In this document: in pieces, positions 512 to 60,808 of the stretch
How the letters are laid out: each line of letters starts with the position of its first letter
How positions within the stretch are numbered: the stretch's first letter is position 1
IMG/VR virus record: IMGVR_UViG_3300021255_001258
Coordinates: 32,001-96,000 of that record
Strand: one strand, 5' to 3'
Length of the DNA stretch: 64,000 nt
Source: a virus
Taxonomy: Duplodnaviria > Caudoviricetes
Notes under the pieces: generated by a model
What the model was told of the DNA's origin: nothing
The model's input: the letters and a program-made list of their open reading frames with translations, nothing else
Databases searched by the model: none
Position numbers and translations under genes: made by a program

Positions 512-529
512 AAGCGGACACCTCCTTCA

Positions 530-1486: not shown

Positions 1487-1503
1487 GATATTCTCCTTCC
1501 TTG

Positions 1504-2256
1504 TTAAAATATAGTTAGGATTAGTTTCTCCTAATCCGAGTTAGAAATAATGGGGCGGACTTTATTGTTCCAGAACTCTCTTTCCGCCTGTGTAATATGC
1601 ACTTCAGAGTCAAGAACGTGAGTCATTAATTCACTGTCATTGCCGATTACAAATGGCAGATCTATCAGGTAGGCATTCCCGTCACCAACTTTAATTCCCG
1701 GAACATATGTAATATTTCCCAGTTCGTCCTGAGTTGTCTTGTAATCCGTGTATACATAGATGATACCGGATTCAGAGACAAGGTCGTGCTGGGCGTTCCA
1801 GTATGCCATGGTATTATATTTGACATTCCTGCCAACATTAATATCAATAAGATCCCGCCATTCTGTATCTGGCTCTTCAGCATATTTCCACTGGATCATA
1901 TCATTGTTATTCCTAAGAACAACCGTGTCGGCTTTAAGGCTTCTGACCCATTCATCTTCCGTGCCTATATAGCCGTGTTTCACCGCTAATTCATATGCCG
2001 AAAGCCCTCTGAGAAATGTTTCAATTATTGACCCGTTCATTGAAGAGGATTTGATTGTCCCAGACAAACCATTTGAGTACAATGAAGCTGTGCCAGACAA
2101 ACTGTTAGATTGTAATGAAGCCGTGCCAGATAAACTGTTTGAGTGCAATGAAGCCGTCCCAGACAAACTGTTAGAGCTTAATGAAGCAGTCCCAGATAAA
2201 TTACCGGTAGAAGGTACGCCGATTATGCCAGTTAATTCTCCAGTCATACCCGTCAT
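1504..2256 (-). CDS. Putative tail-associated protein with 11-aa repeats, 250 aa
   Basis: Track ORF extended through TAG 1531 to TAA 1504; GLSAYELAVKHGYIGTEDEW motif typical of phage collagen-like/tail proteins. Confidence 0.65.
2058..2202. repeat. 33-bp coding tandem repeat, about 4.4 copies (SNSLSGTASLx)
   Basis: Four imperfect copies of t(c/g)ccaga(c/t)aaac...aatgaagcNg are visible directly. Confidence 0.9.
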
Positions 2257-2260
2257 AGCA

Positions 2261-2641: not shown

Positions 2642-2670
2642 GTACGGATACCTCCTTCCTTATATAAGAA

Positions 2671-2690
2671 AAGACCACATAAGTGGTCTT
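2671..2690 (-). terminator. Rho-independent terminator
   Basis: AAGACCAC-N4-GTGGTCTT hairpin followed by TTCTT on the minus strand. Confidence 0.65.
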
Positions 2691-2718
2691 GTTTATGGTT
2701 ACGAAATATATATATAAG

Positions 2719-3153: not shown

Positions 3154-3162
3154 AAAACCTCC

Positions 3163-4176
3163 TTATGCACCAAAACACTTATGATATTCATACTCTACAT
3201 CTGTCAAGTTTATTTTCGAATATATAAGCGTAGTGTCCAAGCTTTTATGACCTAGTAGCACACGAAGCTGCTCGATTGGCATTCCCTTCCTTAAGCACAC
3301 AGTAGCAAAAGAATGACGAAATACATGTGCAGTTAATTTAGTACTTAATTGAACACGATTATTCATCTTTTTAATAATTATTCCAATTGAAGATTTGTTT
3401 AATCCATTATATGGATATTTATCAGATGTGACCACATATTCATTATTCCCACATTTGGACATCTTGTATTTGAGTAATGATACTTTGGTGATCCCATTAA
3501 AAACAACAGTTCTGTATTTACTACCTTTGCCTAATATCACCATGGTTTTCTTGTTCATATCAATATCAGACCACTTCAAATTAGCAAGTTCACTAATGCG
3601 AATGCCCGTATAGAAGAGAATGTCAACAATCGCCCTTTCTCTGTACGTTTCGCAAGCACAACGAACAATTTCAAATTCTTCTTCATTTATAGGATTACGT
3701 GGCTTGGCGATATACTTAATAGGGTTAATGTTACCGACAAAATTTTTGGCTACATATCCTTCGTTTGCTGCCCATGCGAAGAATCCATTAATAATAATCC
3801 TACACTGGTCAAGCGTATAATTGCTGACACCTTTACGCTTCTGATAGTCATACAGATAATGAATCATCAGAGTTGAATCCATCTGATCCACGGGCGCTGG
3901 TTTATTTAAGAAAAAGTCCATGAGATAGTAGTTATACAATTTTAGCGTCTCAACGGATCTTCCAGCAAGTTTCTTCCTTGCAAGATATATTGCGTAATAC
4001 TTCGGCACAAACTCATCAGCAGGAACAATTTCTGTATTACGAGGTTCGATTTCATAATCAGACACGGTTTCTTCAAGTATTCTCTTAACGGTTTCAAGTT
4101 GCTCTCCACTCAGTTCTTCTACTAGCTGAGAGATTATCATTCCGATTAGCTCATTACGCTTCGACAATCTACACAT
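3163..4176 (-). CDS. Tyrosine recombinase (XerC/D-like)
   Basis: TGIRISEL, GKGSKYR, HVFRHSFAT and LLGH...TTLIY catalytic R-K-H-R-H-Y motifs. Confidence 0.95.
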   Translation of the reverse strand: MCRLSKRNELIGMIISQLVEELSGEQLETVKRILEETVSDYEIEPRNTEIVPADEFVPKYYAIYLARKKLAGRSVETLKLYNYYLMDFFLNKPAPVDQMDSTLMIHYLYDYQKRKGVSNYTLDQCRIIINGFFAWAANEGYVAKNFVGNINPIKYIAKPRNPINEEEFEIVRCACETYRERAIVDILFYTGIRISELANLKWSDIDMNKKTMVILGKGSKYRTVVFNGITKVSLLKYKMSKCGNNEYVVTSDKYPYNGLNKSSIGIIIKKMNNRVQLSTKLTAHVFRHSFATVCLRKGMPIEQLRVLLGHKSLDTTLIYSKINLTDVEYEYHKCFGA

Positions 4177-4181
4177 CTCCT

Positions 4182-4270
4182 TTCTACTAATGTTCTACTA
4201 ATATTATACATATAAAATAGCATACATGAATCCATATGTCAAGTATAATATTGGTAGAAAAGCAGTAGAA
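4182..4270. promoter_or_regulatory. 28-bp imperfect inverted repeats with four GTAGAA boxes between divergent genes; probable operator
   Basis: ttctactaatgttctactaatattatac (4182-4209) versus gtataatattggtagaaaagcagtagaa (4243-4270). Confidence 0.65.
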
Positions 4271-4276
4271 TATTTC

Positions 4277-4305
4277 TTGCAATCCAAAACGAACAATGTT
4301 ATACT
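4277..4305 (+). promoter_or_regulatory. Sigma-70/SigA-type promoter for the RHH gene
   Basis: TTGCAA-17 bp-TATACT with a TGn extension. Confidence 0.65.
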
Positions 4306-4325
4306 GTATACAGGAGGTGTGGATT

Positions 4326-4481
4326 ATGGAGAAAAAGATGCATCAGCTTAATTTCAAAATTCCAGAAGAACTCTGGGTAAAAATTGACATGCTTGCCAAA
4401 GAAGAAGATCGGTCAGTAACAAAGATGATTACAGTAATACTACAGAAGTACATAAAAGAAAGAGAGAAGGGCGGCGAATAA
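4326..4481 (+). CDS. Ribbon-helix-helix (Arc/CopG-like) DNA-binding protein; only clear plus-strand CDS
   Basis: AGGAGGTG RBS; QLNFKIPEELWVKIDMLAKEEDRSVTKMI pattern; own promoter and terminator. Confidence 0.85.
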   Translation: MEKKMHQLNFKIPEELWVKIDMLAKEEDRSVTKMITVILQKYIKEREKGGE

Positions 4482-4497
4482 CCGCCCTTCTTTTTTT
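4465..4497 (+). terminator. Rho-independent terminator
   Basis: AGAAGGGCGG/CCGCCCTTCT stem followed by a T tract. Confidence 0.85.
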
Positions 4498-4539
4498 GAT
4501 CAAAATACTTTAGTCCTTTACCTTGAGATTTTTAATAAA

Positions 4540-4677
4540 TTAAATTGGTATTTCATACTTCTCTTGTGAGAATCCAAAATCGTTTACAAGAAGCGCTGTA
4601 ACTTCGTCTCTCAGCTTGTAATAATGGTGTTGAGCCTCAAACTTAGATTCTTTTCTTTTGTTCTTAGGAACTGACAT
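4540..4677 (-). pseudogene. avd: Truncated DGR accessory protein (Avd-like N-terminus, 45 aa)
   Basis: AAAGGAGG RBS; MSVPKNKRKESKFEAQHHYYKLRDEVTALLVNDFGFS matches the recalled N-terminus of Firmicute Avd-like proteins; lies directly after the VR and hairpin; stops early at TAA. Confidence 0.7.
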
Positions 4678-4703
4678 AGTCAACTCCTCCTTTCAGAGTT
4701 ACC

Positions 4704-4726
4704 TCTCCGCCCACGAGGGGCGGAGA
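4704..4726. promoter_or_regulatory. GC-rich hairpin downstream of VR (DGR target-recognition element)
   Basis: TCTCCGCCC-acgag-GGGCGGAGA perfect 9-bp stem, 7 nt after the target gene stop, with no U tract. Confidence 0.7.
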
Positions 4727-4733
4727 TGAAAGA

Positions 4734-5975
4734 TTATTTAATCCCGAAGGCCGGGCGAATGCCAAGCCCCGTGCTCGAAGCGTCGAAGTAGTAGCAAAGC
4801 CCGCTGGCGCCGACACGAGCGAAATGCGAAGAAGAAACAACAGAACGAAGCCACCAGTCCACACGATTACAAATATATTGTGGTGCGAGAGCAAACAGGG
4901 GGAGCTGTCCTTTATCAATAGTATATGCGGCAGGAATATTTGTTCCGTTAATGATGTTCTCGAAGAACTTGTTGCCATATATCATCGACTCGTTCATCAA
5001 ATCTACAGTGCTGTCTGTCCACGTTCCTCCAGATACATATCCGTTCGTTACTGCATTAGAGAAATATTCTCTGTGAGTCAGAATATGTGAAGACCCGAAA
5101 GCATTCTGTGCCTTTGTGACGCACTGCGCTTTCGCCGTATTCGATGAACTGTCGGCATTCGTACCGGAGAAGAATCCGCTCCCAATGTAGCCGCCTTCAG
5201 TAGTATTTGAAGTATTCATATAATGCGTTGTGCTTCCGTCTGCGTTCAGCAAATTGCTGTCAGGAACGATGACAGCATGGTGAGTCGTGCATGCTGTGTC
5301 ACCGCAATTCAGCCAATAGTCGAAAGCTGCAATACGCCACGTTACTGAGTTAATTACCCAATAGTCGCCGATATACAAATCATCGAACGTCCCACCGCTG
5401 ATTGCCGACCACTGAGAAGCGGTAACAGATGTTCCGAGGTTCTTGCCACGGAAAACGGAGTTGTGACCACCTGCGTTTGCTCCTGCTTGTTTGCTATTTA
5501 ATTCGTCTACCTCCTCACGGGAAGGCAAACGTTCCCATGATGTCCATCCGCTTCCCCCCAGTGTTCTTCTGTAAATGTCAGTCATTGTATATTGTGTTTG
5601 TATTTTCCGCACATTCGAAACCAGAGTATAAGTTATTACAACACATCTTTCATCATTCTTGGCTAAGTTGCTATGTCCTGATACAGCGGAAGATACGATA
5701 CATCCATCAGCGCAAGTGTTTCCATCTATCCCGCCCGATGTATATCTCAGAACCAGATCAGTCTTGCTATTCAGATCGTTAAATGCGGACTAAATAGTCT
5801 TTGTTGCACCAGCAAGTTGCGATGCATTATATTGTTCGATAATGGCTTTCGCCAAATTTGTATAACTAATTTTCTTGAGGGCAGTACCTCCATCAGAAAT
5901 AAATATTTGATCGTTACTGTCTATAGCAGTAACCGTAGGTTTAGTATTAATGTCAGTTGTTTGAACATCTGCCAT
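4734..5975 (-). CDS. Modular tail fibre/receptor-binding protein with C-terminal DGR variable region, 413 aa
   Basis: ATG 5975 with RBS; one TAG (5790) joins two track ORFs; C-terminal WWLRS...FARV...GIRPAF is a C-type-lectin-fold DGR target signature; two LNSK junctions. Confidence 0.85.
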
Positions 5976-6097
5976 AATTTTTATCTCCTTTCTGTCATTC
6001 AATAAAATACTAGTTTTATTATATTTCAATATAAAATCATAATACGTAAGTAAATAAAGGGTTTTTATAATTGGATATATCCAATGAAATGTGAGTT

Positions 6098-9000
6098 TTA
6101 TTTAATTATACAATAAAATCCTGTTCCTGTACCTTCTGTTGTTTTTAATGTTATCGTATTTCCGCTTATTGTAGGATTATTTAATTTTGATCCTTTATGG
6201 ATTCGATAATATTTCCAACCGCCGTCATATTTTACATAAAACAATCCAGTAATTTCTATATCTGATGAATGTCCAATTCCAATTAGATACTATCTAGAAG
6301 TATTACTACCCAATGAAATGTTTGTACCAGACGTCGTAGCCGATGTATTAGTTGCTCCAGATAAAAACGATGTATTAGAAGAAAGAAAATCACTAGTATT
6401 TGCATATGCCGCACTGCCAAGTCCTTTCACACTTGCATTTTGTCCAGCAATCTTTACTTGTCCATTATTATCTCCAGTTCCGACAGAAATACTATGCTAG
6501 TGATCGCCACGAGCATATGCGGTTTCAGAACCTTTACTACTACTAGAAGCAACAGCTTTTGGAGTAGTGTCGGATGGGCTAACAGATGTCCCACCACCAG
6601 AGCCAGCGTTTGCACATACGGATGTTAAATTATATAGCTATCCACCTGTTTTTACATAAATATTTCCATTGTTTGTATTTATTGGCATACCAATCCATGG
6701 ATATGAACCAGATGCAATTGAACCAAATCGAAGCCAATTATTATAACTTCCACTTACTGTTCCAAGATCAGATGGACTAATTGACTGAATACATTGGACT
6801 GTTTCATTTAAATGACTAGAGTCTTTTTGATAAAAAATCCTATAATTGAATCTTGCATAGAAATCCCCAGCTTCAACCTCTCCTCTGTCTTCAGACAAAT
6901 TACCTTTTACAATAACTCTTCCATTATCTCCATAACCGGTAGCATCAATCACACCGGCATTTATTTGAGTAGCAGCAACAACAGGGGCTGTTATTGTCCA
7001 TTTTTCTGACCCGCTCTCAGGAGAACCAATTAAAGAAAGATTTCCGTCAATTTCCACGGATGTATCATTAACAATATAAATTCCATTTTTGGCGGACAAT
7101 TTCATTTTCCCATAGTCATCATGTAATACCTATCCATTAGTCCATGTTTTATTTGCATAACACATTGTGATATACGTTCCATATGTTCCATTTTGCCCAA
7201 TCCTTACTTTTGCATTGTTTGCGTCGGCAATATATTCCGCCTTAATCAATGAAGTAAGAGAAGAATCAACATTATTTTCTGTCGTATATATATTAAATGT
7301 ATTTGCGGATATAACACCTTGAACTGTTGCGTTCCCACCACTATCTACTTTAAATTTATTACTAATACTCAGCCCATTATCTCCAAAATATGCATTGTTT
7401 TGCGTGGATGTATTCGCAGCTCCCATTGTTGAGCTACCTTTATAAATGGCGGTTGATGTTATTTTCCACGGCCCAATTTTACCTATTTCTCCAGTCGTTC
7501 CATTTGCATTGATTTGAAATACATTATTTTCCCCGATAGAAATACCATCTGTTCCAAGATAAAATCCGGCAGCGGTACTCGCCAATGAATCTTTTCCATA
7601 CTGTAACGAAGTTTGTGTTTTCTAATTATTGCCAGTACCAGTTACATTAGAACCAATATTAATATTGTTTACAACTGTTGTCCCGCCAATAGTTGAATTT
7701 CCTATTGTAGTACCAGATTTAATACTTGTGTTTCCAGAAGCATCTGCCCAAAATCCGTTACCAATTGCAACACCGTCTGTACCAAGATAAAAACCAGCTT
7801 TTGTACCTTTTTCATTCATTGATGTTATATTGTAATATATTTTAGGAGAAGCTGAACTTCCGTCTATGTGCAAACTACCAACGTCAATGTTACCAGTAAA
7901 AGAGCCAGATGAGGCTGTAATTTTCCCAGAAATATCTGCACCTACTGCTGTTATTTTGCCACCAGAAATTGATACATAAGAATTTGCTGAATTATAATTC
8001 CTTATTCCATCAGTTCCAACATATGTTCCGGCAGTTGTGCTTGATATTGTGTCTGTACCATTATAAATACCATTATGTCCATTTGTTCCGTTGCCAATTG
8101 TCCAACCACCAATTTTGCCAGAATTTGCATACATATATCCATTAGTAGTTACACCAAACGCCTTACCAATTGACATTGCCCATTTATTTGAGCCAGAAGC
8201 ACCACCAATAGCAGCATTAACAGTTTCGCCTTTAGGAGTTAAAATAATTGCTTCGGTAGCAGCACCATGAGTTTGGTTGCCATACCATAACTTATCAGTT
8301 GTAATATTCCAACCACCAATGTCGCCAGTTTTTGCTTTTATGTATCCGCTAATTTCTGCATTGTATGCTTTGAGTAATCCGGCTGTGGAAATTTGAATTC
8401 CTGGAGTAGTTGTGGTGTGTGCATCGCCACCAATCTTCACATCTCCGCCCAGAGTTAAAGACTACGCATTTATATGTCCATTGAAATATGCTCCGGCTGT
8501 CATACCTGATCCGCTCGGAGCACTATTGATTATTGCAAAAGTGGGAGAGAAGAAGTTGCCATTCGCCAAATCGAGATAACTACCTGTCTGTGAAAACGGT
8601 TTTGTATTGTTGTTATATGATAAGAAATTCTAAGACATAATGGCATTTGTTGCCAGATGCTCAGAATTAATTGTATGAGTTTTGATGTAACCACCATTAA
8701 TTGTAGTAGTACTTGTTATTGCATCCGAAGCCCATGCTGTTAATATAGTATTTGCGTTTACGGATGTATTATAGGCTAAATAAGCTCTTGAGATTGCTTC
8801 GTTTAATCCCTTATCTTCAACAACATCTGTGGCTTTCTTGGTTCCATCTTTATATGTAACAACCTCACACTTCCAATATAATTTTCCGATCTGATAATCA
8901 GGAGTTGTTGCAGACCAATCTGAATTTGTGAGCGGATTGTGATTTGGTTTTGATGCCGACAAGAAATAATATGGAACTGTTGAATCAATACCAATACCAT

Positions 9001-10459
9001 TTCTGGCTACTGTATATGTTATTGATTCGGAATCATCATCATAAATAATCTTTGTCCTTGCCCATATATAATCTCCATCTTTGCTACTCGGAACATTAGA
9101 AGACCATACACCATCAGAAAGTGGAAGACCATTTCCGTCGGCAAGAGGGTTTCCGTTAACATCAACCAAGGGCATACATGGAATAACAGTGCCAGAAGAC
9201 GATGCAGTATATTTTATCTCTGTCGATTTTACTCCATTGCCAGTATTTCCGGTATGCCCAGTTAAACACACAATAGTGGTTGTATCAGTTCCGGTTCGCG
9301 AAGTCTTTACTGTTTTTTGCCAAATATACTTACCTTCTTGAAATGTTGGAACGGTTGAACTCCATGTTGTTGGCTAGACAGTAGGATCATTGCTTACTCC
9401 ATAAGTAGTGACAATATCTCCAATATTAATACTTTCGACTTCATTTTCAACATCAGTAATTCTTTTTTTGGTAGATGTATCAAAAGAATTAAATGTAACT
9501 TTTCCTGTCAAATCTATATCTCTTGCAATTATTCTTAAAGCATCATTTGTAAGCGTCATATTAGAAGAACTTGTACCGGATTCAACAAGCCATGTAAAAT
9601 GATTTGCAGCCTGATTTGCAACTGTTTTTAATGAAGTTGTGCTGTCTCCAAGAATATCCTATGAAATTGTCCGAGTATGTTCATCGGCGGTATCTTTAAT
9701 ATCATGCACTCTTGAAGCCAATGTTGTAACAACAGTTCCATCAGCCTTTGTTACAGTTGTAGTTTCATCATCAGATATTGCTGTCCAAATGCCGGACAAA
9801 TCAATTTCTGTATTATTTACTCTATCTCTTACCGTCTACACGGTTTCACCATCATACGAACTTATCTTTGCATCAATATCAGTTTCCCAAACCTTTTGAA
9901 TAATCTTTTGCTCAAGTTCGTCTGTCTTATTGATAATACCATGTAACGTTTTTGAATACACTGCATCTGAGTAACGAATAGTACCATCAGTAAGCATAAA
10001 CTCAAATCGTTCCCAAATAAATGTTCCATCAGAAGCATCCGGTTCTGTATATTGCCAACTTCCTCCAACTAAACGACTGTTAGATGTTGAAAGATAATAT
10101 TGTCTTCTTTCTGTTGCAATGCTTGCGCCATTATAACCAACAGAGTATGTAACAGATTCAGAGTCATCATCAAAAATTGTTGTTGTTCTAGACCACAAAT
10201 AAAACCCATCTGGTATCTGCGGAATTGCAGAAGTCCATCTGGAATCCACTAAAATATTTCCGCTCTCATCAGCGAGAGGATTTCCAGAGCCATCAACTAA
10301 ATATTTGCCAGGTGGGTCGGTAGGCGAAAGCCCTCTTGCATACTCAACAACTGTTGATTTTACACCAGCTCCGGGTAATCCTCGATCACCTTTATCGCCT
10401 TTATCCCCTTTTGCGCCATCATTGACATTTGTAACAACTGCATATCCTCTTGCAATCAT
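6098..10459 (-). CDS. Large tail fibre/central spike protein, ~1453 aa (recoded)
   Basis: Six track ORFs in one frame separated by TAG; ends TAA 6098; collagen GDKGDKG, G(Y/F)YLW(S/A)RT repeats and GxIGGW repeats. Confidence 0.85.
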
Positions 10460-10473
10460 AAGCTTTCACCTCC

Positions 10474-13020
10474 TCAATTTATTTCACATACAAACTGCAT
10501 ACTATTTCCTATGATACTTGGGTCAACATATATACATCTTTGTGTTTTATATGGTGTGCTTGTATCAACTGACTGACCAGTTGCATTTATTCTATAATAT
10601 TTATATGTATATATATAATTCTCGGATGCGGTTACCCAAGATGTTCCGTTATATTGTTTAAGTGTACACGTTTTATTACTTGCGTTTAATTCATAATAAT
10701 AATCTCCACTAGAAGCAGGAGATGGAGCAACAGTTGAAAATACTAACGATTTTAGCGGATCAACTTCTTCTGCACCTCGATATACTCTTGTATATATAGC
10801 TCCACAACCTTGGCCATTTTTAAATTCACGAACAGTTGCAACAGTTTGTGCGGTATATGGATCTTGAATGTCGTCCACTGTATAGAAAGCCTCACATGTC
10901 GTTCCGCCATAAGCAGCCGTAGCCTTAAAGAATTCAAAGTCATCCACCATTGAAGCGGTTACGACCAAACTGGACGAAGTTGCGCCAGAAATAGGAGAGT
11001 ACGAACCATTTGTAAATTTATACCAAGTAATACTTGTCGGTGTTACAGCGTTCGCACCAAATACATAACGAAGCTTTAATGTTGTGCTTCCTTCCGAATT
11101 TCTAATAATTCCACCATCTTCGGAGTAAATCTAAAGAATGCTTGTTGTTTCGCCGTCAGATCCTTTAAGATTCTTTGTTAATACATATGTCGAATCTGTC
11201 GTAAACGTTCCACCATCTGTGCGAGTTGCGGTTAAACGAATTGTTATACTTGCTTGTTTTAAAGATGCTCCCCCTAACGTTGCTCCATTTGCAGCGCGTA
11301 ATACAAGGTTTCCATTCGAAGACGCGGTTCCGGCAGTATTTGTGGCAAGAGTTATACCACTCGGCAGAGAGGAAGTAATAGAAGCAGTGACAGGAATTTT
11401 GTTAATTCCGGCAAAAGCATAGAACGGAATTGTCAAATTTTGCTCACCGGATACTTTGCCATCTGGTGTACAAGGAAGAATATCCTAATGATTTACCAAT
11501 CCGACTGTATAGCCAGGAATGCCGTCCTAGCCATCTTCGCCAGAAATACCATCTCTTGTGATAACGACCAGCTATTCGTCCAATATTGTTGTTGTGTTTC
11601 CAGAAACATATAAACGGCATCTAATATTCAAAACAGATGTTGTACTGGGAGAGTAATGAACGATTGCTTCATCATTTGCGCTCGTATATTTATCAACATA
11701 TGCAACGCCATCTTCAGTTTCTGCAATTATGAATCGTCCAGAATAAGCATTTTTTGTCAGCGAAGATCCCGTCTTTGTATAAGCAGAAAATGTTACAGAC
11801 GTTGGTGTATACACATTATCTTCTGATAAATTCACAACATATGTATCCGGTGCAACTTCATATATAACCGCATCTTGACCATCAGAACCAGAACGAGATT
11901 TAGTTATTGTATAACGGGCATATAATTCGGAATATCCTTCACACGTACAAATAAAATCTACATAACTCGTCTATTGTGTGAGGGCGGTTGGAGTAAATAC
12001 TCTATCGACAAATGTGCCTTCCAAACCTGGACCAAGTGTTGCCACAATTTTCCATCTATAGTCCTGAACATAAATGTTGTTTTCATCAGTAAGAATCGTG
12101 TTATTCTCGTCCAATAATGTAAAAGCATCAAAACTTACATCTTCACCGCCTTCATATATATGAATGTCTGTAGACGCTCCATTAAACGTAATTACATTAC
12201 CTTCGTCATCACACGGAACATAATGAGACTGATTGCTTAGTACAACAGATACTGTCGAATCTCCCGCCGTCCCATCATATATTTTTATTATCTAATGAAT
12301 ATCATAAACATCTGGATCTGAAGTGGCTAACTTAATTGTGGCTGTTCTATTGTTAAGCCATATGCTATTTTCTGTAGCCATTACTGTTAATGTTGTTCCG
12401 CTTATAGACTGGTTATTTCCTGTAGGAAATGCGACATACTGCCCAGAAGAGTTAAGATACTGCCACTGACTAATAGAAACATTCGAAACATCTGCTGTTA
12501 ATACAATAGAATCAGAGCCGACAATATCTCTCGTCGAATCATATAAGAATGTACTCTCACCAGTGATATAGGCGTACTTAATATCAGAACCAGAAGTAAT
12601 AAGAGAGTATGTCAATGTATTTTGTGTACGTACAGTTACGCCAGTTGATGGATCTGCATAAGCTATATCACAAATATATGTGATTATTTTACTTTGCGAA
12701 TCAGCAAGTTTATTTGCCGATACTTCAAGAACACCATTATTCGCAGTTTCTCCAGTTGTCAGAGCGACCGCAGTTCCAGAGCCATCTCGTCTTGTATAAG
12801 ATATGGTGAGTCCACTCGCAGACAGCGAGAGAGAAGCACCATTAAAAGTAATAACCGGAGTAATTATCAAATGCGAAGAACTCCAGTCAGGTGTATAAGC
12901 GCTGTTATTAGGATTATATATCACGCTCGTAGGTTGATTGCTACTTAAATAACTTTGTAGATTACCAACGTCGAGGCTGTCCTAAATCGCAACGCTGCTA
13001 TATGCATGAATAACGGACAT
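10474..13020 (-). CDS. Tail/baseplate structural protein, ~848 aa (recoded)
   Basis: ATG 13020 with AAGGAGG; four track ORFs in frame; ends TGA; YTPDW motif and beta-rich composition. Confidence 0.8.
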
Positions 13021-13032
13021 ATATTACCTCCT

Positions 13033-16000
13033 TTATGACGTTGAAATTCCATTATCCCACTGGAAGTGACATACAAAATTTGCATTTCTAACAATATCAC
13101 TTCCACTAATTGTTAAAATTTTTGTTCCGGTTGAATGAGCATTATTCCATGCTGTATCTCCAGCCGAGTCAGATGAAGACCTAGACCAGACAAAATATTC
13201 GCCACTATAGTCTTCGGTGACTTCAATACCGTTACGAAGTAAGTGTGCAATTAATCTAACATTTCCGCCACTTATATCAATGCCATCCGGTGTTTCTATA
13301 CGGATAGTATAAGTTGCAGACTCTTCAAGGCCGGTAGAAATACGACCTAGTTCATTTGTTGTATTATTAACAAAGGTTGTATACTGAACACCCCACGCTT
13401 CTTCTCCATTGTAAATCTGTGTAAGCTATACTCTGTCTCCAGTTTTCATTACGCTAAATCCAAGTCTGTCTTCGCTAATTGTTCCGGTACGAATCATATC
13501 ATTTCTTATTAATTGATCCGGCACTGCATTCTCGGTAATTCCTTGCGGAGTAAGAACAGTGGCACCATCTGAATTACGAAGAATTAAACTTGGCTGTTGG
13601 TTTGTATCATATCCAAGCTGAATGCCAACATATTCATTGTCGTTTTCATCTTTGCCTATAATCTGGAGAGCAGTACCGTCCATAATCATGGCACCATTCT
13701 CGGATAAAATCTTCATATTTTCTGTAAGAACTATATTTCCGGCAGCAAGGTCTGCAACCCCAAGTTTGTTAATAACAGCACTTTGTATATAAGCATCATC
13801 AACAATACTGGACACAGATGTGGACATTAATGATTGTAAACTTCTTGTAAATGTTGTATTTGCAAGAATGGCATCCGCATTAAGGACGTCAACATTAGCA
13901 AGAGCAGCCTCAAGCGTTTCAACCGTGATTTCTCCGGCTTCTATATATGGAGAAATAATCTCGCCAAAATACGCCATATCACCAGTGATATTATGAACAT
14001 CAATCTCAAGAGCATTAATAGCATTTGAATTAATAATATTCGATGTTAGCGTCTCAAAATCACCGGTTTCACCAACGATCTATGTGGCATTAATTGTAGC
14101 TGTGCTAATATAATCTCCGGTAATCTCGGTAATACTGTCAGTACCAACACGAATAATCTCGGAAGATAATTCAGATATTTCAGCCTAATCAGCACGGAGA
14201 ACTTCGGTAACAATATATTCAGAATCTATATACTAAGTGAACAACTCATTAAATTCCGCCGTTTCGCCAACAATATGAGTAACATTAATTTCGGCAGCAT
14301 CAATTTGTTCAGAAACTATATGACTAATATTTCCTTGAATAGCACTGATTGTAGCCGTAGTTACATCTCCAACGATTCCACCACCAATGTCCGTACTGTA
14401 TGATCCCATATAACTGCTGAATGTAGAATTGTTTAATAGCCTAAGAACAAACGCAGTATCTACATTAATATCAGAACCATCTACTGTCCGTGTAAGAGTA
14501 GCATATACCTAATTCTTGGAAGAGCGGTTCTCGCTGTTCATTAATGACACAAAGTCATTTCTTTCACTGGCATACTATGTCATATTGGAAAATGTCAAAT
14601 CTATTGTAGGTTCAATCAAGAATGGATTAAAACCTATAGATGTCACACGGAGTTTAACTTGAAAATCTTCCCTCATTGCTACACGGATAAAGTTTCCAAC
14701 TTCAAGTTGACCGTGCCATGCCTTAAATTCCGGCATAAGCAGAAGATTATCCTGCGTTGTAGAGAATGTCCACTAGGGCTATGAGTCTGCTTCAAGCTGT
14801 TTCTTTGCATCCAAATATAACTCATATGCTTTATTTACCCATTCCTCGCCAGTACTGATGCTTGTAGTGATTATATTCTCATTCACATAGTCAGTGTGAA
14901 TCCTATATCTATCAAGAAGCCATAAATCATCATCAATAAATCCGAATCTGGAATTTGTAATGTTTACATCATCTTTGATTGCATTCATTTGATTTTGATA
15001 ATCATCAACAACATCCATGGCATCATTATATTCCTAAAGACGAACAGCATATACATCCTTACATTCTTCAAGAGCCTCATTGTATTTCAAATATAACTCA
15101 TACTGTTTTTGCGCATATGCATCACCTTGTTCACCAGGCACATTAAATCCACGCTTCTCCAATGTTGTTACGCTATTGGTTAATGTCGTAATCATTGACT
15201 TCAACTCGCCAACACCATATGAGTCGCCATATCTGTCAAAATCATACATATATCCATCATAGTACGGACGAGTATCAGACGCAGACGAAACACCTCGATT
15301 ATAAAGCGCAATATCAAGGTTTGGAATAATTTGTTCTTTTAACAATATATAGTACTGATAATCTTCTGGTGACGCTTCAGCGAGGGCCTCTTCACCGATA
15401 AATTCACCTTCTTCGTCCACATATGTGGTTTCGATCCCAACCATTATTGATTCTTGGCTGGCACGTTCATTAACCAACTCGTCGTCCGATAGAGTAGAGT
15501 ATTGTGCAGTATCTACCATGTCCACTGGCACACGGTCATATATTTCGTCCGCAACCTACTAAGCATTACGGCGAAGAATAGAAGCGTCCATATAATCTTG
15601 ACGTCTGGACTCTCGGTAATCTCGCCAGTATATATATTTGTCAATAAATTCTTGACTAAAATTATCAGTATTTAGAAAATAATCAATATTCTCAATCCAG
15701 TTCTCACCGAAGTTTGCCTCGATGACATCGAGATTTTCTCCGCCGGAAACGTGATAAAGAGTATATAATTGCTTTTCGGAATTTCTGGTAACAGAGTTCT
15801 ATATATTATGAAAGCTCAAATACACATTCGTATCATTTCCCAAGTTGTGAATTTTATAAACATTGACAGTATAATTCTCAGTGTCGAAAACAAACATACA
15901 TTCAAAATATGTTGCAACTTCCTATGTGAGGAAACTATATATGTCCTAAGAATCTACTTCAAATCTGCCAACCATATTTGCAAGTTTTATATGATCAGCC

Positions 16001-17783: not shown

Positions 17784-17840
17784 AGCCTTCCTCCTTTCTT
17801 TTATAGGGCGAGTCGTGACCCGCCCTTAATAATCAAAAAA

Positions 17841-18347: not shown

Positions 18348-18352
18348 GGTTA

Positions 18353-20388: not shown

Positions 20389-20402
20389 AATTATTCCTCC
20401 TA

Positions 20403-21253: not shown

Positions 21254-24200
21254 TTATTTTCTACCGAGTTTTCTTGCTTCTCTAGCATTATATTTGTTTG
21301 TGTATTCACATGCTTGCTTCAAGATATCCTGAAGTTCTGGTAATACATCTCTGGTTACATCTCCCTAAACAGTCAACAGCGATTCATAATTGTTGGTGAT
21401 ATTTGTAGACTGGTCAACTTGAGACGGAATACTCGGCATCTTCATTTGAATGAATGTGTGTGGATCAATTGCGCCCCATTTCATAAGATTTTCTGTAAGA
21501 TTTGCGGGGATTACTCCATCACCTTTAGAGAGAGGAGTGAGGTATGCACCGTCTTTGCGAACGAGGAGTTCGCCGGAGTGCGTCCAGTGAGAGCCAGTAT
21601 ATGGAATACTTGTTATTCCTTTTGCATAGCCTTTCTTTGAAGATTTCCAGCCAGTATCTTTAAGTTTCTTGAGAAGAGCAGCAGCTTGCGTTTCGTTCAA
21701 AGATTTCTGATTAGCGGTTACACCGGAGATTTTTTGATCTACTGCAAGCTATACAAGTTCTTTGTCTGTTGGTGTTTTGCCAGTTATACCTTTTATATAT
21801 TCTTTGAGATTCTATTCTTCGGCTTTCTTTATATCACTTGTGATATTACCTGAACTTGTGGTTGCTGCATTTGATGCTGTAATCTTTGTAGTTTTATTAT
21901 CACTCTTGAAACTTGTTGTGCTTGCAAGGCTTTTGCCATAATTTGCGGACAACACATATCCTTCAAGGTCAAATCCATTATACTGTAAAGCCGTTACAAT
22001 AGCTTTCTTTTGAGCATCTGTTAACTTCTTTCCACTTGCTTCTGTCGGTAGTCCAGAAACATTTGTATATGCTTTACCAATATGTAACATTTCAGCTTCG
22101 GTTAAGTCTTGACCTGTTGTATCATATATATACTTCCATAAAACATCACTTTGTTTTGTCGTAACTGTTCCAGCATCCGGCGTTCTATTTCTTGAATATA
22201 TATATTGACCTGCACCTTGATTTGTTCCAAAACCATACTGCTTCATTGCTGCCAGGATTTTATTACGAGCATCCATTGAAAGATCTTCTTCTTTGGTAAC
22301 TTTGCTCTTATATGGAACGCCCTCAAGATCAGCCCCAAAATCTCTCAGATATTGCGCCAAATGGGCCATTTCTGTAGCTGAAGCATCTTTTCCACCAGTA
22401 AGCTTGTAAAGATAATTCCACAAAGCATCATCTTTATGATTATTAATAGCTTCTGTACTTGCAACTTTACGGGAAGCAGCATAGTTATACATCTTTGTAA
22501 GAGTATTTCTACGTGCTTTTGCCTGTGTAGCAGTTTCTCCACCGGCAGCTTGTTCTGCTTTTTTCTTATCATCCGCATCAGTGTAGCTTGTCTTTTGTTG
22601 GCCGTTTGCCTCAAGACCTCCAACCATTTCCTCATAAGCGGAACGATATTCTCTCATTGCTGTTGTGAGAAGACCAAGATTCTCAAGAGCTTCTTGCGCT
22701 CCTACTGTCATGAATCGAATTGGGTTTGTGCTTATATTATCAACAACGGTTTCCCACTATGTCTAGAAAGAAGAAAGCGTACCTTCATTTTCTTGAACCT
22801 AAGCAGCCCATGCTTGAAGTGGTGCGAGAGTACCATTCAAGTCATCAATTTGTTTTTCTGCTGTTTTTCCGACTACGGTTCCGGTTTGTTTTATCTTAGC
22901 TTGAATTGCACTATATGCACTATCATAATTCTGTTCAACTCGTTTAAGCATCATCGCAACTACTTGCTCTTGAGCTTCTGCATTTCCTTCAACATATTTA
23001 AGCGTATCATCAAGATTCTTTTGTGCTTTGTTTGACAATTCATCGTATCCTTGCTGTTGCATATCTATGCTGTGTTGATAACGAGTATCCGCAAGATCGT
23101 CTTCTTTCTCAGAAATCTAAGCCTTTACTTGTGCAAGGCGGGCTTTCGTCGCAGCATCTTGTACACCGGTAAGGGCTGCCGCTTCTGCGCGAAGCTGTTG
23201 CAATTCTTTATTTTTGCCCTAAAGAGTACGGTTATAATCGTAATAACTCTTTTTGGCTGACAGGCTCTTCTTTCTAAGGTCGATAAGTTCTTGTAATGCA
23301 CGATTCTCATTTGTAATCTACGTCTTATATACATCAATAATGGATTTCTTCAGTTGCTCATTTGCAGACACACTCTGCTGAATTGTCTCTATATGCTGAC
23401 GAGATTCTTCTTCGTATTGCTCCATGGAAATAATTCCAGCGTCATATTCCTCATGTAGTTTCTCAAGAGCGCCACGTTCATTTGCAATAAGTTGATTGTA
23501 ATTCTGAATCTCTGCACCATAGAGCGCAAGTTTTGCGTATCCTTCTTCTGTGATTTCAATTTGGTCACCAGTATCAAATATTTCTGCATCGCTAATAAGA
23601 CTATTGAGATGTTCAAAGTCAGACACTGTTTCTTTAATAATTCTCTGAATTCTTTCGAACGGCTCCCATCTAGTCTTACGAATTGCCTCAGAAAGTTCAA
23701 TGTTGGCAGTAGCAAGAGAGATGGCAGTCTCACGAAGTTGCTGAAGTTTTGCATAACCTTCATTCCACTTATCAGAACCAGGCTCCCATTGTTTCATTTG
23801 CTCTGCAAGAGCAGCGGACTGTTTATCAATCTGAACGATTTCCAAATTGTTTGTATCTATCTGTCCTTGATATGCAGTTCTTCTTTGTGCAATAGATTTC
23901 TGCATCGTGCTTACATCTACACTTGGGAAATTCTTACGAGTCCCAACTTTTTCATAATAACCAGCAATACCTTTAAGAGCACTTGAGAAACGACTTAATC
24001 TTTCTATGGCTTGACCAATAGCGTCAATATCAAGCTGTTTTATTTTGTCGCCCATCTCTACAATAGCAGTATTGGTATCCCAAATGCTTGCCTCAAGATC
24101 AAATAATTTGGCTTTGGCTTCATGATATTCGTCAGTATTTTTCTTGCCAGCCGCCTCTAAATCACTAATGATCTTGGTATATTCGGTATATTGAGACGAC

Positions 24201-27200
24201 AAATATTTCTGTTGTTCTTCAAGACGAACACGTTCTTGATTGTATAACTGTTTGAATGTTCCGCTATTAGCTCTTGTTCCGGTAGCAGTATAATATGCTT
24301 CTTTAGACTGAGTAACTTTCTGAGAGGACTGGACCATATGAAGGAGTCCACCCCATTTTTTATCAGCTTTATCAAACTGCGCTTGAGCAAGTTCAGTTGC
24401 CGCATTCTTAGCAGCCTTCTGGAGTTCAACCAAACTTGTCTTACTTTCCCAATACTCTTGAGTAAGTTGAGCAAGCTGTGTCTGCGCCTCTTGATATTCT
24501 TTACTATTGACACCATATATCTTAGCTGCTTTCTCAAGCTCTTTCTCATAGTCCTTCATTGCCTGTTCGTTGTACTTAACAATTTCTTTCTGACGGACAA
24601 TCTGAGAACCCATATTCTGTCGGATAACTTCGCGGTCTTCACCACCACTTGCCTGATAGTATTCAAGCATAGCTTTTGTGGACGCTTGGATAGCAGAAGA
24701 GCGTTCGGCGAGAGTGCCGTATTTGCTTACAATGTTATCAAGTTTCGTACCTTCGAGTTCTTTTAATTGCTTCTGAAGTTCAATATTTGCATCTACACAA
24801 TCTTCTGCGGCATCTGTCCACTGTTTATAGGATTCAATGAATGTGCGGATTCCCTCATTGTAAGATGTAATATCCAAACTTCCACTATTCAAAGCCTTTA
24901 TAATCTGGTCAGCTTCAGTTGCCGACAAAAGTCCGGCATTAATAGCCTCAGTACGAACTTTATCTGCCTATGTTCTATAATTCTTTGCGGCTGTTTCATT
25001 ATTGCTGATTTGTTTTGTTACAAGTTTTGCTGCCTGATCAAGATAATTGTTCTTGTCTCTTGTATTTGTTGCAAGTTCGGCACGGCTTGTAAGACGTTCG
25101 ATTTCACGGTTTGTCTTTTCAAGTGTGATTTCGGCCATGTTAAACCAATCAGCTGTGGCCTTTTGGAATTTTTCAATTGCTTCTTTTATTGCATCTTCTG
25201 TTTCCTTAGCGGCATCACTAACAGTGCTTGCGACTTTTTTGCCTGTATCTTTTGCAGTATTAGCAACATCTTTTCCGGTATTTGATGGAGTATTTGTACC
25301 TGGAGTTCCAGGTTTAAATTGTATGCCGCCATTTCCGCCATAATGAGATGGCATACCATTATAAGCCAACGTCCCACTAGCCAACGCACGAGCGCCACCA
25401 ATAAGATGACCTTTACCAGAAGCTCGACCAGTTGACATGAGTGCCTTAACTTGGCTATGAGAGAGTATGACGTCACCTTTCTTCAGGTTTTCAACATGCA
25501 TACCTCCCGGAAGAATCGAGAACACACCGTTCCTAATTAATCCTTCCGCGCCGACCTCATTTACAAGTGCTGTCTCATCTTCCTGTAGAGATACATTTGT
25601 TCCTCTAGCATGAGCCGGAATTGCATTGACAACATTATAAGCAGTACCAGAAGCGTGAGCATGGAATGTTCCGGCTGCATCGCTTCCCTGAGCTGGCATT
25701 CCACTTACTCTAGCATGAACACTAATACTATATTGCTGATTCATGATATTCGCGAGTGCACTTGTTATTCCCGTCGTGTTTGCACCAACAGTAATTGTGG
25801 CAGTTCTATGGTTAATACTAGCCACAGCAATATTCGCAGCGTTAATTGCTTCAGAATTATCGCCAGCAATCTTCATAACTGGTTTCTTATTGCTAGCATA
25901 TTTTTCGGCAACATCCGCTTTGGTTCTTACATCGGAAGAATCTCCATTAATTTTCATTTCCGCCGGATTGTCTTCAGCATGCGCCTTAGCTGTATCAATT
26001 GCTTCCATTGCTTTTGTATTATCAGCGACAACATCCATTTTTGCTTCTGTTATTGCCTACGTGAGGTCTTCTATTTGTTCGGACGAAATTTCAACTTTGA
26101 TTGGTGCTTCCAAACTTTCAATCTAACTCTTAAGTTCTGCTAATTCTTGTTTGCCCTATTCGGTGTTAAGATCAATATTAAACTCTTTTGCAAGATCTTC
26201 GTCTGCTAACGATTTCAGTTCTTCAAGTCCAGATATTACTTCGTCTTTTCCTTCGAGGATTGTATTAATGTGTATCTGACGATCATATGTTTTAATTTCG
26301 TTATCTGTTGCGAGTGCCTCGTCGGATCCATCCTCCATGCCTCGTCTTGCTTTTATTAATTGGACTTTCCTTTGTTGCAATGTTTCATTATCTAATTGAG
26401 AAATGTCACCACCCAAATTAAACGAGATATCAACATCCCCGCTTTGCTGCAGTTCTTTTATTTTTTGTCTACCCTATTCAAGCTATTCATTAAATTCTTC
26501 TGCCCCTTGAATAGATGGACCAAATTCTGCATCGGGTGTCCAATCAATAAGTCCCATCTAGGACAAAACAGTCATTAATGCTTTGCCATATTCCTGACCA
26601 AGACCAAGTTCTTTTAAAATTCCATCGAGAGCCTATTCAGCACCTTCTAATTGTGTTTTCCCATCACCAAATTCAATTGTTCCAAGTTCTTCGTCTGAGA
26701 ATTGTTTAAGTGTATTAAGATACTTGCTGATGGCCTCGTTGTAACCATTTATCTTATCACCATCAAATAACTCATGATTGTGCGCAACTTCGGCATATCG
26801 GTCTGCCATTTCTTTTGCGTCTTCACCCTTAAATGTTGCCATAAGAACAGGCAATTCAACCTATTCACCATTTAATGCTTTCTCGGCATATTCTTGCAAT
26901 GCTTCTGGTTCTAGTACATCGCCATTCGGAAGGATTGGTGTCATAACAACGGCTGTCTGATTATCATCGCTGGTATACGTCTAACTATATAATGTCGCAT
27001 AATCTCCATCGAAATCAGGATAAAATTCTTGCATCATGCGAGGAGTAACTCTGGCTCTGTGATTTAAATCAACATCTCCAAATTGAGTTCCAGACACGAA
27101 ATCCGTCATTGCAGCCTCATAACTAGCGCGATCAATTGTAAAATCTTTCAAATTAATCGTAACACCGTATTCATCTGCCATTCTCTGGACTTCGTCCATG

Positions 27201-30200
27201 ATACGTTTCATACCAACTTGATCACCCATATTCTCCGCCGTAGTATAAGCCTGACGAAGGGCATCAACTGTATCTGGTAAATTCTTAAATCCTTCAATGA
27301 AAGACTACTGAGAACCAGCAACATAATTATTTGTGGCGGTATCCAAATTAGTAAGGTCATCTTTTAATCCTTGAATCTGATTACGTTTTTCCGCCAACAC
27401 ATCTTCGCTCGCTCCGGCAGCAACAAGTTGTGCATATTCAAGTTGTGCGTCTGTCAACTGTGTTTTGAGGTCGCTTGCTTTTGCAGAAGCTTCTTCAAGA
27501 GAAGATACATATGCAATATTTCCACCGTAGTCATTGATACGCCCCATCATGTCCATAAAGAATTCATCAGACATACCCATTTCAAGAGCGGCTTTTGCAG
27601 AATCCGCAAAATCAAGAGAATATCCAGTTAATGCATCGTATGTTGCCAATCCTTTAGAAACAAGATCATTGAGGAAATTGGTAACTCCAGATGCGTCATC
27701 TGTGAAGTATCTTTCAACTTTCTTATAATTCTGCTCAAATGTCTTCCAATCAGTTCTTCCGAATGGATCAAGATATGAGGCGCGAGTCTTGAAATCATCG
27801 GTTCCAATAAGTCCCTTATCAAACAGTTCCTTGCCAGTCTTCATATAACCTTGAGCTGTCTCATAGTCAGCACCTTCATTCTTCGTCTGGTCAGCACGGG
27901 CAATAGCAGCAAGACGAGAGAAGTTCTGCATTTGTTCAGCATAAGTAGCATAATACTGAGCCTGTTGACGCATATATTCAGCCATTTGTTCATTAAGTTC
28001 ACGAACTTTGGAAGTATCTCCGGCTTTCGACGCACGGTCGATTGCTTCCTGGATTTCATCCATCTTTGACGCAAAGTCCTGATTAATGATTTCATTCTGC
28101 TGTTCCGCAAGCCTCTGCAGTTCTATCATGTCAACTTTGACACCGTCAGCCGTAGCATAGAACACCGATGAAATGTCTGCTTCATTGGCAAGGTTGCTAA
28201 ACTGTGTGGTTAACTGCTGAATCGTATCAGATGAAAGTCCAGTTTCGGTTGTCATTTCTGACATTGCAGTCGAAATAGCAGAAGAGAGTGCTTGAGCATC
28301 GGAGATTACGAGGTTTTTGATTGTATCGTCGTAATTTGCGATGTCACCAAGGAGAGAAGAGATAGAGGAGTTGTTGGCATCGATTTCCTGACCAATTTCT
28401 CGCCTACGATCCGCAGTGGTTTCAGTTTTTGTAGCTTCTTCGGCAAGAAGTTTATTTTGTGTCCTCAAATTCGCAATCTGGTTCTTACTAAGGTTCTGAA
28501 GCGTTTTATATTCTTTCTCTGTTACTTTAAGTCCCTATGCTTGCTTCAAAGATATAAGGTCATTGATTTCCTATGCTTGAGATTTATATTCATCTAATGC
28601 GTATCCAAGTTGTTTAAGTTCATCATTGGAATAAGCAGAAGAGTATGTGGATGCTTGTTCACGAGCCGACTGAGCATTTGCCGCATGTTCATTTGCGTAA
28701 CCAAGATATTTTACTCTAGTAGCATCGCTTGTTACACGAGAAGCAGCATTTTCCCAATATCTTGCCATAGTATCTTCTTGTTCTGCTGTGTTTTGATATA
28801 ATTCCTGTAAAGAATCATATGTCTTCTTGGTTGTTCTTTGGCCTGATTTTTCGTTCTTGGCAACCAAATTCTCAAGTTTATCAATTTCTGTCTTGTTTAA
28901 GTCAACTCCACGTTGATACGCATTTGTACCAGCTTCAAGCTGTTCTGTTTGAAGATTTATTAAATCTATTTGAGATTGCGCTAAAGCCGATTCAGATTCA
29001 TTTAACGCTTTTTGCGCAGCTTTGTATGCCGGAGAACTGGTATCATAAATCCTATTTCGTTTTTGTCTCTTGTTGGAAACATCTTCCTGATTTAATCTGA
29101 TCGTTTCTTCTGCATTTCTTATAATCCCATCATAGTCGGCCTAAGTGATAATATCACCCTTTGCTTCTTTATATTCAAGTTCAGATCTACGCTTTTGCGT
29201 ATCAGAATCAAGCCTTTCTAGTTCTGCTTGTATTTTTGCTGTATCTGCATCAATTTCCCAGACCATCTTCATGTCTTTGTATTTTGCATAGATTTCGTCT
29301 GCTGTGCCGGAGAATTGGTCGGAGGCGATCATTTGATAAACTACGTTCCAATTGAGTTCTTCGTCACCAAGTTTTCCTTGGAGGTCTTCGATCTAAGAAT
29401 CAAAAAGTTTAGATAATCCTTCACGTTGCGCATGAGTGGCAGCATTGACATCAGCCGTAGCATTTAATTCCATAAACAAATCTTTTACATCCGATGATTC
29501 ATCTGCTAAATTCCCCATGGAAGATACAAGATTCTCGACATATGTATTTAATTGCTGTAATCCTTCAGCGGACATACCATCAACATTCGCACGAAGTTCT
29601 TTAATCCACTCTGTTAATTTTCCGACCGCCTTGTCGGATATTGCTTTTTCTGTAAACTCTGTTAAATCTGGGAATGAATCCTGAAGTGTCTTCATTTCAT
29701 CGGCTGTTAATGTACCATTTTCCCGCAAAGATTCAAGTGCTCCAGTGAGAGAGGAGAGTGAAGTTTCAAAAGATTGTGCTTTCTCCGCATAACCCTCATC
29801 ATTAAATATAGAAGATAAATTATCTGTAGGTTCAACTTTTTGTATTTCTTTTCTCGCCTCTTTATATTTCTCTAACCAATTTAAGAAATCTTCCAAACCA
29901 GAACCTTCATAATCAAATTTGCCTTTGATTTTTGCCTCTTGAACTAAATCAATATCTTCAAGACTAATACTACGTACTTCGTCCGAAGAAATTCCGAGTT
30001 CTTCTGCAAGACTGTCAAGATCGGCGGAATCCGAATAAAAATCTCTACCAGTTTTTTCATCCACATAAGTAAGACCAAGCATTACACGAATATTTTGCCT
30101 TATTTTATATGATTCATCATCATCTCCTGGGACAATTTCTCTAAGAACTTTGGCAAAATTATCTCGATATTCTGTGGTACTTAATGATTTATCTGAAAAT

Positions 30201-60720: not shown

Positions 60721-60808
60721 CAAGCCCGGAGGGACTCGAACCCTCATTCGCGGCATCAGACGCTCTTACAGATTTAGAGTCTGCTGTTTTGCATTAAACT
60801 ACGGGCCT
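60721..60808 (-). tRNA. Amber suppressor tRNA (anticodon CUA)
   Basis: AGGCCCG/CGGGCTT acceptor, G73; GCAGA-CTCTAAA-TCTGT anticodon arm; GAGGG-TTCGAGT-CCCTC T arm; 22-nt variable region. Confidence 0.92.

Follow-up and report, generated by a model that had tools for sequence, protein, structure and literature searches.

The window analysed here is a 64,000-nt stretch of a tailed-phage genome, positions 32001-96000 of virus record G000 (127,448 bp, rated about 65% complete), and carries on its minus strand a tail-fibre or receptor-binding gene (4734..5975; 413 aa, with one in-frame TAG at 5790-5792). Three 16-nt motifs in and behind this gene are true recombination joints, at which this phage and its relatives have gained, dropped and exchanged portions of their host-recognition fibre; they belong to a system of fibre modules that in sister phages resembles a Rin-type shufflon. 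With a probability of roughly 0.58, the three motifs are crossover sites of a fibre recombination system of the Rin-shufflon kind, of which the window holds a cassette-less derivative. We infer, as the best-supported reading and at somewhat better than even odds, that the enzyme encoded next to the fibre made both the joints and a deletion in an adjoining diversity-generating retroelement (DGR).

The motifs lie on the minus strand at 5774-5759 (CTGAATAGCAAGACTG, joint A1), 5501-5486 (TTAAATAGCAAACAAG, joint A2) and 4555-4540 (TGAAATACCAATTTAA, end site B), where the preliminary description had placed them. A1 (CTGAA-TAGCAA-GACTG, a left arm followed by a 6-bp overlap) and A2 (TTAAA-TAGCAA-ACAAG) both encode LNSK, in frame in the same gene and 273 nt (91 codons) apart, and they bound a knob module of about 87 aa (5502..5758, minus). 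From its N terminus the fibre consists of an anchor (aa 1-67), LNSK, the knob, LNSK and a DGR-type target domain, and its C terminus matches DUF6273. The knob is an interchangeable member of a divergent family whose sequences end W..W..P.R.E..LNSK. Relatives that share the anchor (P0006-P0016) carry different modules of ~85-110 aa, each ending W..W..P.R.E..LNS[KN], and the knob of the window is found in another context in L075 (P0006) at 96.8% nucleotide identity. Sequencing runs were used as assembled contigs only, the uncovered part being uninformative; in contigs of runs X2 and X3 the knob is missing or substituted, and run contigs that join 5502 to 5764/5776 represent forms with the knob absent or replaced. 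An AlphaFold model of the knob from a nine-row alignment was poor (pLDDT 57).

Across 17 fibre joints from 11 loci (the window, L001, L074-L080, L088 and L099), AAT AGC is present in every one and TTAAATAGCAA in 16. AGC accounts for 10.9% of Ser codons in the late genes of the phage and TTA for 29.6% of Leu codons, and synonymous positions at conserved residues neighbouring the joints vary freely. The joint block is therefore conserved as DNA, beyond the protein that it encodes. L092 and L093 use TCC at the equivalent Ser (TTAAATTCCAATTTAA), such that the Ser codon of the overlap is constant within a group (AGC or TCC) and different between groups, which fits the requirement of a crossover region.

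Breakpoints in relatives coincide with the same motifs, as had been predicted. L076 (94.7% identity to the window over 13975..5761) and L080 (93.6% over 6107..5764) end at A1; L075 (96.8% over 5800..5491) spans A1 to A2, with the close match beginning at AATAGCAA; and L001 (97.4%) and L088 (95.8%) begin exactly at A2, at position 5501, the position at which contigs from gut runs X2, X5 and X6 end. Counts within the window match chance, with three copies of AATAGCAA against 4.7 expected, which is no excess, and no copy of the composite TTAAA-N6-TTTAA against 0.46 expected; the meaning of the motifs must therefore come from relatives. This composite had been proposed as the core of the site, and although it is absent from the window it occurs exactly in L074, L075, L092, L093 and L175, with a near-copy (TTAAATCGCGATTTAG) in L078. 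It lies in frame in three fibres, those of L074 (TTAAATAGCAATTTAA, encoding LNSNL), L092 and L093 (TTAAATTCCAATTTAA), and it flanks inverted spare cassettes in L092, L093 and L175. An inverted near-copy of the 11-mer at 4214-4224 (9/11) was set aside as chance, about one such match being expected per 1.7 kb by our own estimate.

When the site is read in the register arm (5), overlap (6), arm (5), the fibre joints retain the left arm and overlap (TTAAA-TAGCAA), while the spare cassettes and end sites retain the overlap and right arm (TTCCAA-TTTAG in L093, TAGCCA-TTTAA in L175 and TACCAA-TTTAA in the window), and the whole overlap always falls within the identity shared by site partners. The arrangement of the sister loci is that of a shufflon. 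In L093, the recombinase (54% identity) is adjacent to a plus-strand fibre that carries the full site, and an 11-nt exact inverted repeat is present at 5570 and 6882. An open reading frame (ORF) on the minus strand lacks an anchor; it begins ...TAT TCC AAT TTA, and ATTCCAATTTA, the exact inverted 11-mer, is in frame with it. The following linker carries a second inverted pair, of 48 nt. Other genomes have the spare modules of L093 attached to anchors, and there the similarity sets in exactly at the site (P0060, 85%; P0018, 83%). L092 has the same layout, with an adjacent recombinase (55%) and an inverted knob of 94 aa. L175, the locus followed from a 12-nt inverted-repeat search around 80 recombinase relatives that was otherwise too noisy (chance hits at 70 of 80 loci), has a recombinase of 33% identity 3.4 kb away and a 17-nt exact inverted repeat at TTAAATAGCCATTTAA; the exact 17-nt inverted partner of TTAAATAGCCATTTAACTGAC heads an inverted ORF. 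L093 and L094 are in the same orientation, and a scan of viral_contigs with the inverted cassette of L093 gave no match. The description of the locus as shufflon-like is hence apt for the layout of the sister loci; the window, which has neither stored cassettes nor inverted sites, is no working shufflon.

The third motif marks the break in avd, as had been suggested. Downstream of the fibre stop codon and a GC hairpin (4705..4725, minus; CTCCGCCC-CTCGT-GGGCGGAG, kept in L001, L078 and L088) lies an avd-like remnant ORF of 45 codons (4540..4677, minus), the native 5′ part of which (4551..4677) ends inside codon 43, after 42 full codons and one base. Full-length Avd relatives exist, and P0019 is identical across the first 42 aa. 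A contig of run X5, from an unrelated study, has 0 differences over 4551..4682 and then continues GAA AAA CAG ATA GAG as in P0019. Therefore, avd is cut exactly at 4551/4550 and TACCAATTTAA is foreign to it. The alternative TACCAATT was dropped as native avd (L069 reads EKYELQI), since X5 and P0019 show the native GAA AAA CAG. End site B (4540..4555, minus; TGAAA-TACCAA-TTTAA) comprises TACCAATTTAA (4550-4540), which is the conserved overlap and right arm, preceded by TGAAA; as these five bases are avd sequence, the full dyad there arose through fusion. Exact-pattern scans for the avd start returned only the L001 contig in viral_contigs and nothing in metagenome_contigs.

A comparison of deletion forms shows which side of the avd break is fixed. 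TACCAATTTAR stands behind four different left contexts, in the window, X2, L001 and L088; apart from the window, these are avd codon 5 in L001, avd codon 16 in X2 (a 9.7-kb contig) and, in L088, the stop codon of a gene of 47 aa. To the right of the end 11-mer, the window, L001 and L088 are all unlike one another. The three deletion forms (window, X2 and L001) share the end site TACCAATTTAA and differ on the avd side. When the native avd region, taken from L088, was scored against TTAAA-TACCAA at a threshold of at least 7/11, only four positions qualified out of some 146 within the first 140 nt of avd, and three of these four are the avd-side breakpoints in exact register, for which the chance is about (4/146)^3 = 2e-5. 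All three junctions sit at the arm/overlap boundary, and the L001 joint has no microhomology. Judged from the junction sequences, this is the deletion pattern of a site-specific enzyme using secondary sites. The earlier idea that the template repeat (TR) and reverse transcriptase (RT) were deleted through a cryptic site in avd is borne out in that the avd endpoints lie at the best pseudo-sites, and needs revision in that the fixed site is the end site (TACCAA-TTTAA), with the avd side varying.

Comparable dyads follow other fibres. In each of the nine fibre 3′ contexts examined, the gene is followed by a dyad of the form xTAAA-N6-TTTAR in which conserved arms enclose a free spacer: TGAAA-TACCAA-TTTAA in the window, CTAAG-TACCAA-TTTAA in L001, CTAAA-ATACAA-TTTAA in L074, TTAAA-TAATGA-TTTAA in L075, TTTAA-TAATGA-TTTAA in L076, TAAAA-TCACCA-TTTAA in L077, TTAAA-TCGCGA-TTTAG in L078, GCTAA-TAATGA-TTTAG in L080 and TAAAA-TGCCTA-TTTAA in L099.

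The DGR in the window is decapitated and its target is an orphan, lacking TR and RT and with avd cut inside codon 43. The target gene with its C-terminal variable repeat (VR), the flanking hairpin and the avd start are present, and variation between relatives is confined to the VR (4737..4900, minus), where the differences among the window, L001, L088 and X2 cluster at 4740-4900. RT (RVT_1) is absent from G000 (127 kb, ~65% complete) and from the complete genome of L001, and no second VR copy that would constitute a TR occurs in the window or in G000. With neither TR nor RT in the 127-kb record, the two host-range diversifiers that the preliminary description had envisaged at this locus are not both active in this genome. 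Other forms of decay are seen in L088 and L089, which have an avd of 132 aa without TR or RT, and in L078, which has no avd; L079 has an LNSK-type fibre with a DGR that retains avd and TR, on a contig that stops ahead of any RT. The VR of the window is nearly the same as that of L001, and those of X2 and L088 are strongly different, which suggests at least two cassette lineages. Between the X2 contig and the window there are 2 differences in 4.5 kb of flank and 33 in the cassette, nearly all of them in the VR (4740-4887). For the X2 form, which has no RT, this means that either the VR was recently diversified in trans or VR patches were exchanged among cassette variants.

Beside the avd remnant lie a ribbon-helix-helix (RHH) gene and a tyrosine recombinase gene, all three as first described. 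The recombinase (3163..4176, minus; 337 aa, TAG-free) is armless and Xer-like (PF00589, E = 1e-31), with a SAM-like core-binding domain and a catalytic domain and no arm-binding domain. Its R193, K220, H284, R287, H310 and Y319 align with the catalytic residues of XerD, and none of the six varies across the family, which comprises 23 clusters at 53-62% identity. The best models all score below their cut-offs (XerA 197 vs 220, XerC 137 vs 335 and XerD 120 vs 330 bits), as do the integron-integrase models TIGR02249 (72 vs 265 bits) and PRK15417 (52 vs 435). The proposed likeness to an integron finds no counterpart here, there being no IntI-type enzyme and, in repeat scans of 1-8000, no attC-like sites. 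The RHH (Arc/CopG-like) regulator gene (4338..4481, plus; TAG-free) is divergent from the recombinase gene in the window and has the same orientation as the recombinase in L074, L076, L080 and L099. Inversion of the RHH gene by the recombinase was considered and rejected, no convincing inverted site pair being found. A 28-nt inverted repeat (4182..4270; 86% complementary, arms TTCTACYAATATTATAC) that contains TACCAAT occupies the divergent promoter region of the two genes and is probably an operator.

The recombinase adjoins the fibre in the window, L074, L076, L080, L099, L092 and L093, and probably also in L078, where the RHH gene and the start of the next ORF are present and the contig ends. 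It is distinct from a canonical 409-aa integrase encoded elsewhere (G000 28711-29940, plus) at the convergent junction of early and late genes, and L076 has orthologues of both enzymes. The 409-aa integrase is followed by an 837-nt gap without an ORF. A third tyrosine recombinase (window 42237-43415, minus) is located in the structural-gene region and needs TAG read-through. In L095 (3352-6141) and L096 an orthologue of the 337-aa enzyme (55%) lies downstream of a different, intact DGR, which in L095 has a target of 431 aa, a TR and an RT of 378 aa but no avd; an XkdX block comes after it. L095 is ruled out as the intact ancestor of the locus by this different DGR without avd and by its different fibre type.

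Taken together, these features can be arranged into a mechanism. The crossover site would have a 6-bp overlap between two arms of 5 bp each (TTAAA-NNNNNN-TTTAA), set in frame over the codons for L-N-S-x-L, and the likely enzyme would be the armless Xer-like recombinase at 3163..4176, acting under regulation by the divergent RHH gene. In the sister phages, a fibre with the full site would recombine with inverted spare cassettes that begin with overlap and right arm, and inversion would swap tips in frame. The window fibre would have kept two directly oriented half-sites (left arm plus TAGCAA) at its module joints and one end site (TACCAA plus right arm TTTAA) after the gene, with the DGR-type target domain as one module between A2 and the end site, and TR, RT and most of avd would have been lost by recombination of the end site with look-alike pseudo-sites in avd. 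The predicted excision product joins TTAAATA[GC]CAATTTAA to 4539 and below, and the predicted circle junction is ...TATGAAATA[CG]CAAACAAGCAGG. A sequence upstream of the L076 recombinase gene, TACCAAACAAG, resembles this circle junction; the match is post hoc (p about 0.02) and was left unused. That the enzyme at 3163..4176, as opposed to general recombination, is the joint maker and is still active would be our suggestion from the arrangement of genes and sites. In a wider and tentative version, which we consider doubtful, one Xer-like enzyme would invert stored tips, insert, excise and exchange modules at direct half-sites and trim a captured DGR via pseudo-sites. Were this so, co-infecting phages would trade fibre modules, including whole DGR target domains, and site-specific recombination and retro-mutagenesis would be stacked on one receptor-binding gene.

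A number of observations count against an enzyme-made origin of the joints in the window, and several of them can be accommodated by homologous recombination of a general or relaxed type (through RecA or annealing proteins like Rad52/RecT) acting on conserved linkers during co-infection, the main rival account, which we nonetheless consider rather unlikely. Under that account the Xer-like enzyme would be engaged elsewhere, for example in dimer resolution or a second integration, and the avd deletions would be slippage at scattered microhomology. The phage of L001 (88 kb, rated complete) and L075 have joints, end site and cassette and no orthologue of the recombinase; joints and cassette in phages without the recombinase (L001/G001, L075 and L077) are what general recombination would allow, as is the recombinase beside the site-less fibres of L095 and L096. 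The fibre joints keep just one arm and the overlap, the other arm being free, those in the window are all direct repeats, and the overlaps of joints and end site differ by one base (TAGCAA vs TACCAA). The window and the 127-kb record as a whole contain neither a spare cassette nor the 11-mer in inverted orientation, so that tip switching is impossible in this genome, and no strand-changing joint or circle junction was seen among the assembled contigs. It is possible that the three avd deletion forms are nested and did not arise independently, or that scattered similarity guided replication slippage. A longer conserved intergenic stretch (ATTTAAYTCAYTACTTTTCACAAGTTAAY) after the fibre in L001, L075, L076 and L080 might supply right-hand homology, and motif-guided exchange of modules is the classical picture for T-even fibres. 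However, 11 identical bases are very short for homologous exchange, and general recombination leaves unexplained the inverted in-frame spare cassettes beside orthologous recombinases, the conserved arms of the end sites with their free spacer, and the three junctions at one arm/overlap boundary, of which that of L001 lacks microhomology.

The end site raises a further question, since it also fits a genome-wide dyad family, ATRAAA-N6-TTTNAT, with 24 strand hits at 15 loci in G000 against about 1 expected, almost all at gene boundaries. Many copies overlap ATGAAA starts and yield N-termini of the type MKxxFY. Copies in the window are at 6002-6019, 6084-6101, 61962-61979 and 4539-4556; two lie between a 1453-aa fibre gene and the 413-aa fibre gene and, together with the end site, bracket the latter. 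The dyad could accordingly be a binding site for a regulator, either the RHH protein or a factor recognising this family, with LNSK merely a structural linker and the coincidences by-products of AT-rich sequence and shared ancestry. In keeping with this, 4539-4556 is a strict family member, several relatives have the end site immediately upstream of the RHH promoter, and the window-only counts equal chance. Nevertheless, the left half of the dyad is avd sequence that is not kept in the X2, L001 and L088 forms, in-frame copies within fibres that have inverted partners (L092, L093 and L175) are unlike operators, the synonymous-site invariance over 17 joints signals constraint at the DNA level, and L001 and L075 keep the site without an RHH gene; we regard a purely regulatory role as improbable. 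Chance resemblance of short AT-rich strings, for which the agreement of window counts with shuffled expectation would speak, is effectively refuted by conservation and breakpoint coincidence over more than 10 loci and by the pseudo-site statistic. Crossover sites of a Rin-like fibre system thus remain the reading that we prefer.

The genome around the locus is recoded. TAG is a sense codon in the window phage, and fragments of minus-strand ORFs merge into long late genes once it is read as such; 21254..37546 becomes a single ORF of 5,430 aa with 64 in-frame TAGs read as sense, and the plus-strand early genes have no TAG. A tRNA with anticodon CTA lies at 60721..60808, and at 88 nt it is as long as tRNAs that have a long variable arm. 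In alignment, the in-frame TAG of the fibre (codon 62, 5790-5792) is common to L076, L077 and L080 and corresponds to Lys (AAG/AAA) in L001, L074, L075, L078 and L079 and to GCA in L088; at that single position it aligns with no Gln codon. Downstream of the recombinase gene are more fibre-like genes containing TAG. A fibre-like gene of 250 aa (1504..2256, minus) has 4-5 tandem 33-nt repeats at 2057-2221 that encode repeats of the SGTASL.SNSL type. In both the window and L077, a lysis cassette (164 aa, ~90 aa, 130 aa and an endolysin; window 17840-21219) is located upstream of the fibre block; in L076 (10503-13885) and L080 (2724-6112) it directly follows the recombinase, a large rearrangement among close relatives. 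The INPHARED phage records gave no DNA match to window 1-8000.

Receptor-binding fibres determine the bacterial hosts of a phage, and the locus offers a compact, testable rule for rebuilding them, namely 5-bp arms, a 6-bp overlap and L-N-S-x-L codons together with a small dedicated recombinase. If the enzyme acts on the sites, Rin-type shufflons reach TAG-recoded phages of the animal gut, such sites serve tandem assembly and exchange between genomes besides inversion, and the spread of DGR target domains as orphan modules is explained. The site would then also be a natural in-frame docking point for fibre-module swaps in laboratory phages. Even with no part for the enzyme, the locus would remain a clear case of a DNA-conserved 11-nt linker directing fibre-gene mosaicism. 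The kind of system is already known; what is new are the tandem direct-repeat sites, the dyad over L-N-S-x-L, the DGR-target module and the deletions anchored at the end site.

The known Rin shufflon belongs to prophages of Bifidobacterium breve and longum and comprises an armless tyrosine recombinase, an 11-bp intragenic site with a further one right behind the 3′ end, and tips of 95-100 aa (Mavrich et al. 2018, PMC6109161). The window likewise has an armless recombinase that adjoins a receptor-binding gene and is separate from a canonical integrase, in-frame sites at constant/variable junctions (A1 and A2) and a site following the gene's 3′ end (B), and L092, L093 and L175 add inverted spare cassettes. 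In contrast to Rin, the window lacks such cassettes and has direct-repeat sites that join tandem modules in one ORF. The site of the window group is a TTAAA-N6-TTTAA dyad, whereas that of Rin is the asymmetric TTCCCTAACCC, and one module is a DGR target domain. Host and lineage also differ, the system described here being that of an animal-gut phage that is TAG-recoded and exceeds 127 kb, and no inversion variant was seen among the assembled contigs.

Among other invertible systems, the tail-fibre switches Gin of Mu, Cin of P1 and Min of p15B work with serine recombinases, and Rci of the R64 pilV shufflon is a tyrosine recombinase whose sfx sites measure 31 bp and lie in the pilus gene of a plasmid. 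They share with the locus a site-specific, in-frame swap of the C-terminal part of an adhesin, with several cassettes in Min and R64, but they invert stored segments of a kind that the window does not have. XerC/XerD resolvases act on a dif site of about 28 bp, and the 337-aa enzyme differs from them in scoring below the equivalog cut-offs. As in integrons, a tyrosine recombinase could add or excise cassettes between direct repeats, and secondary sites can cause deletions; unlike integrons, the locus has no folded attC sites and no promoter-plus-array, and its cassettes are in-frame protein modules rather than genes. The target domain resembles that of DGRs of the BPP-1 Mtd type in being a C-terminal lectin-like domain with VR, GC hairpin and avd start, but here it is an orphan that behaves as an exchangeable fibre module. 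In T-even phages, modules of fibre and adhesin genes are exchanged at conserved motifs, the His boxes of gp37 and the glycine-rich motifs of gp38, and here too short conserved sequences link unrelated modules, which relatives have exchanged exactly there. The T-even motifs are thought to serve general recombination and have no dedicated recombinase nearby, whereas the 11-nt block of the window group belongs to a dyad, and sister phages combine it with a recombinase and inverted cassettes.

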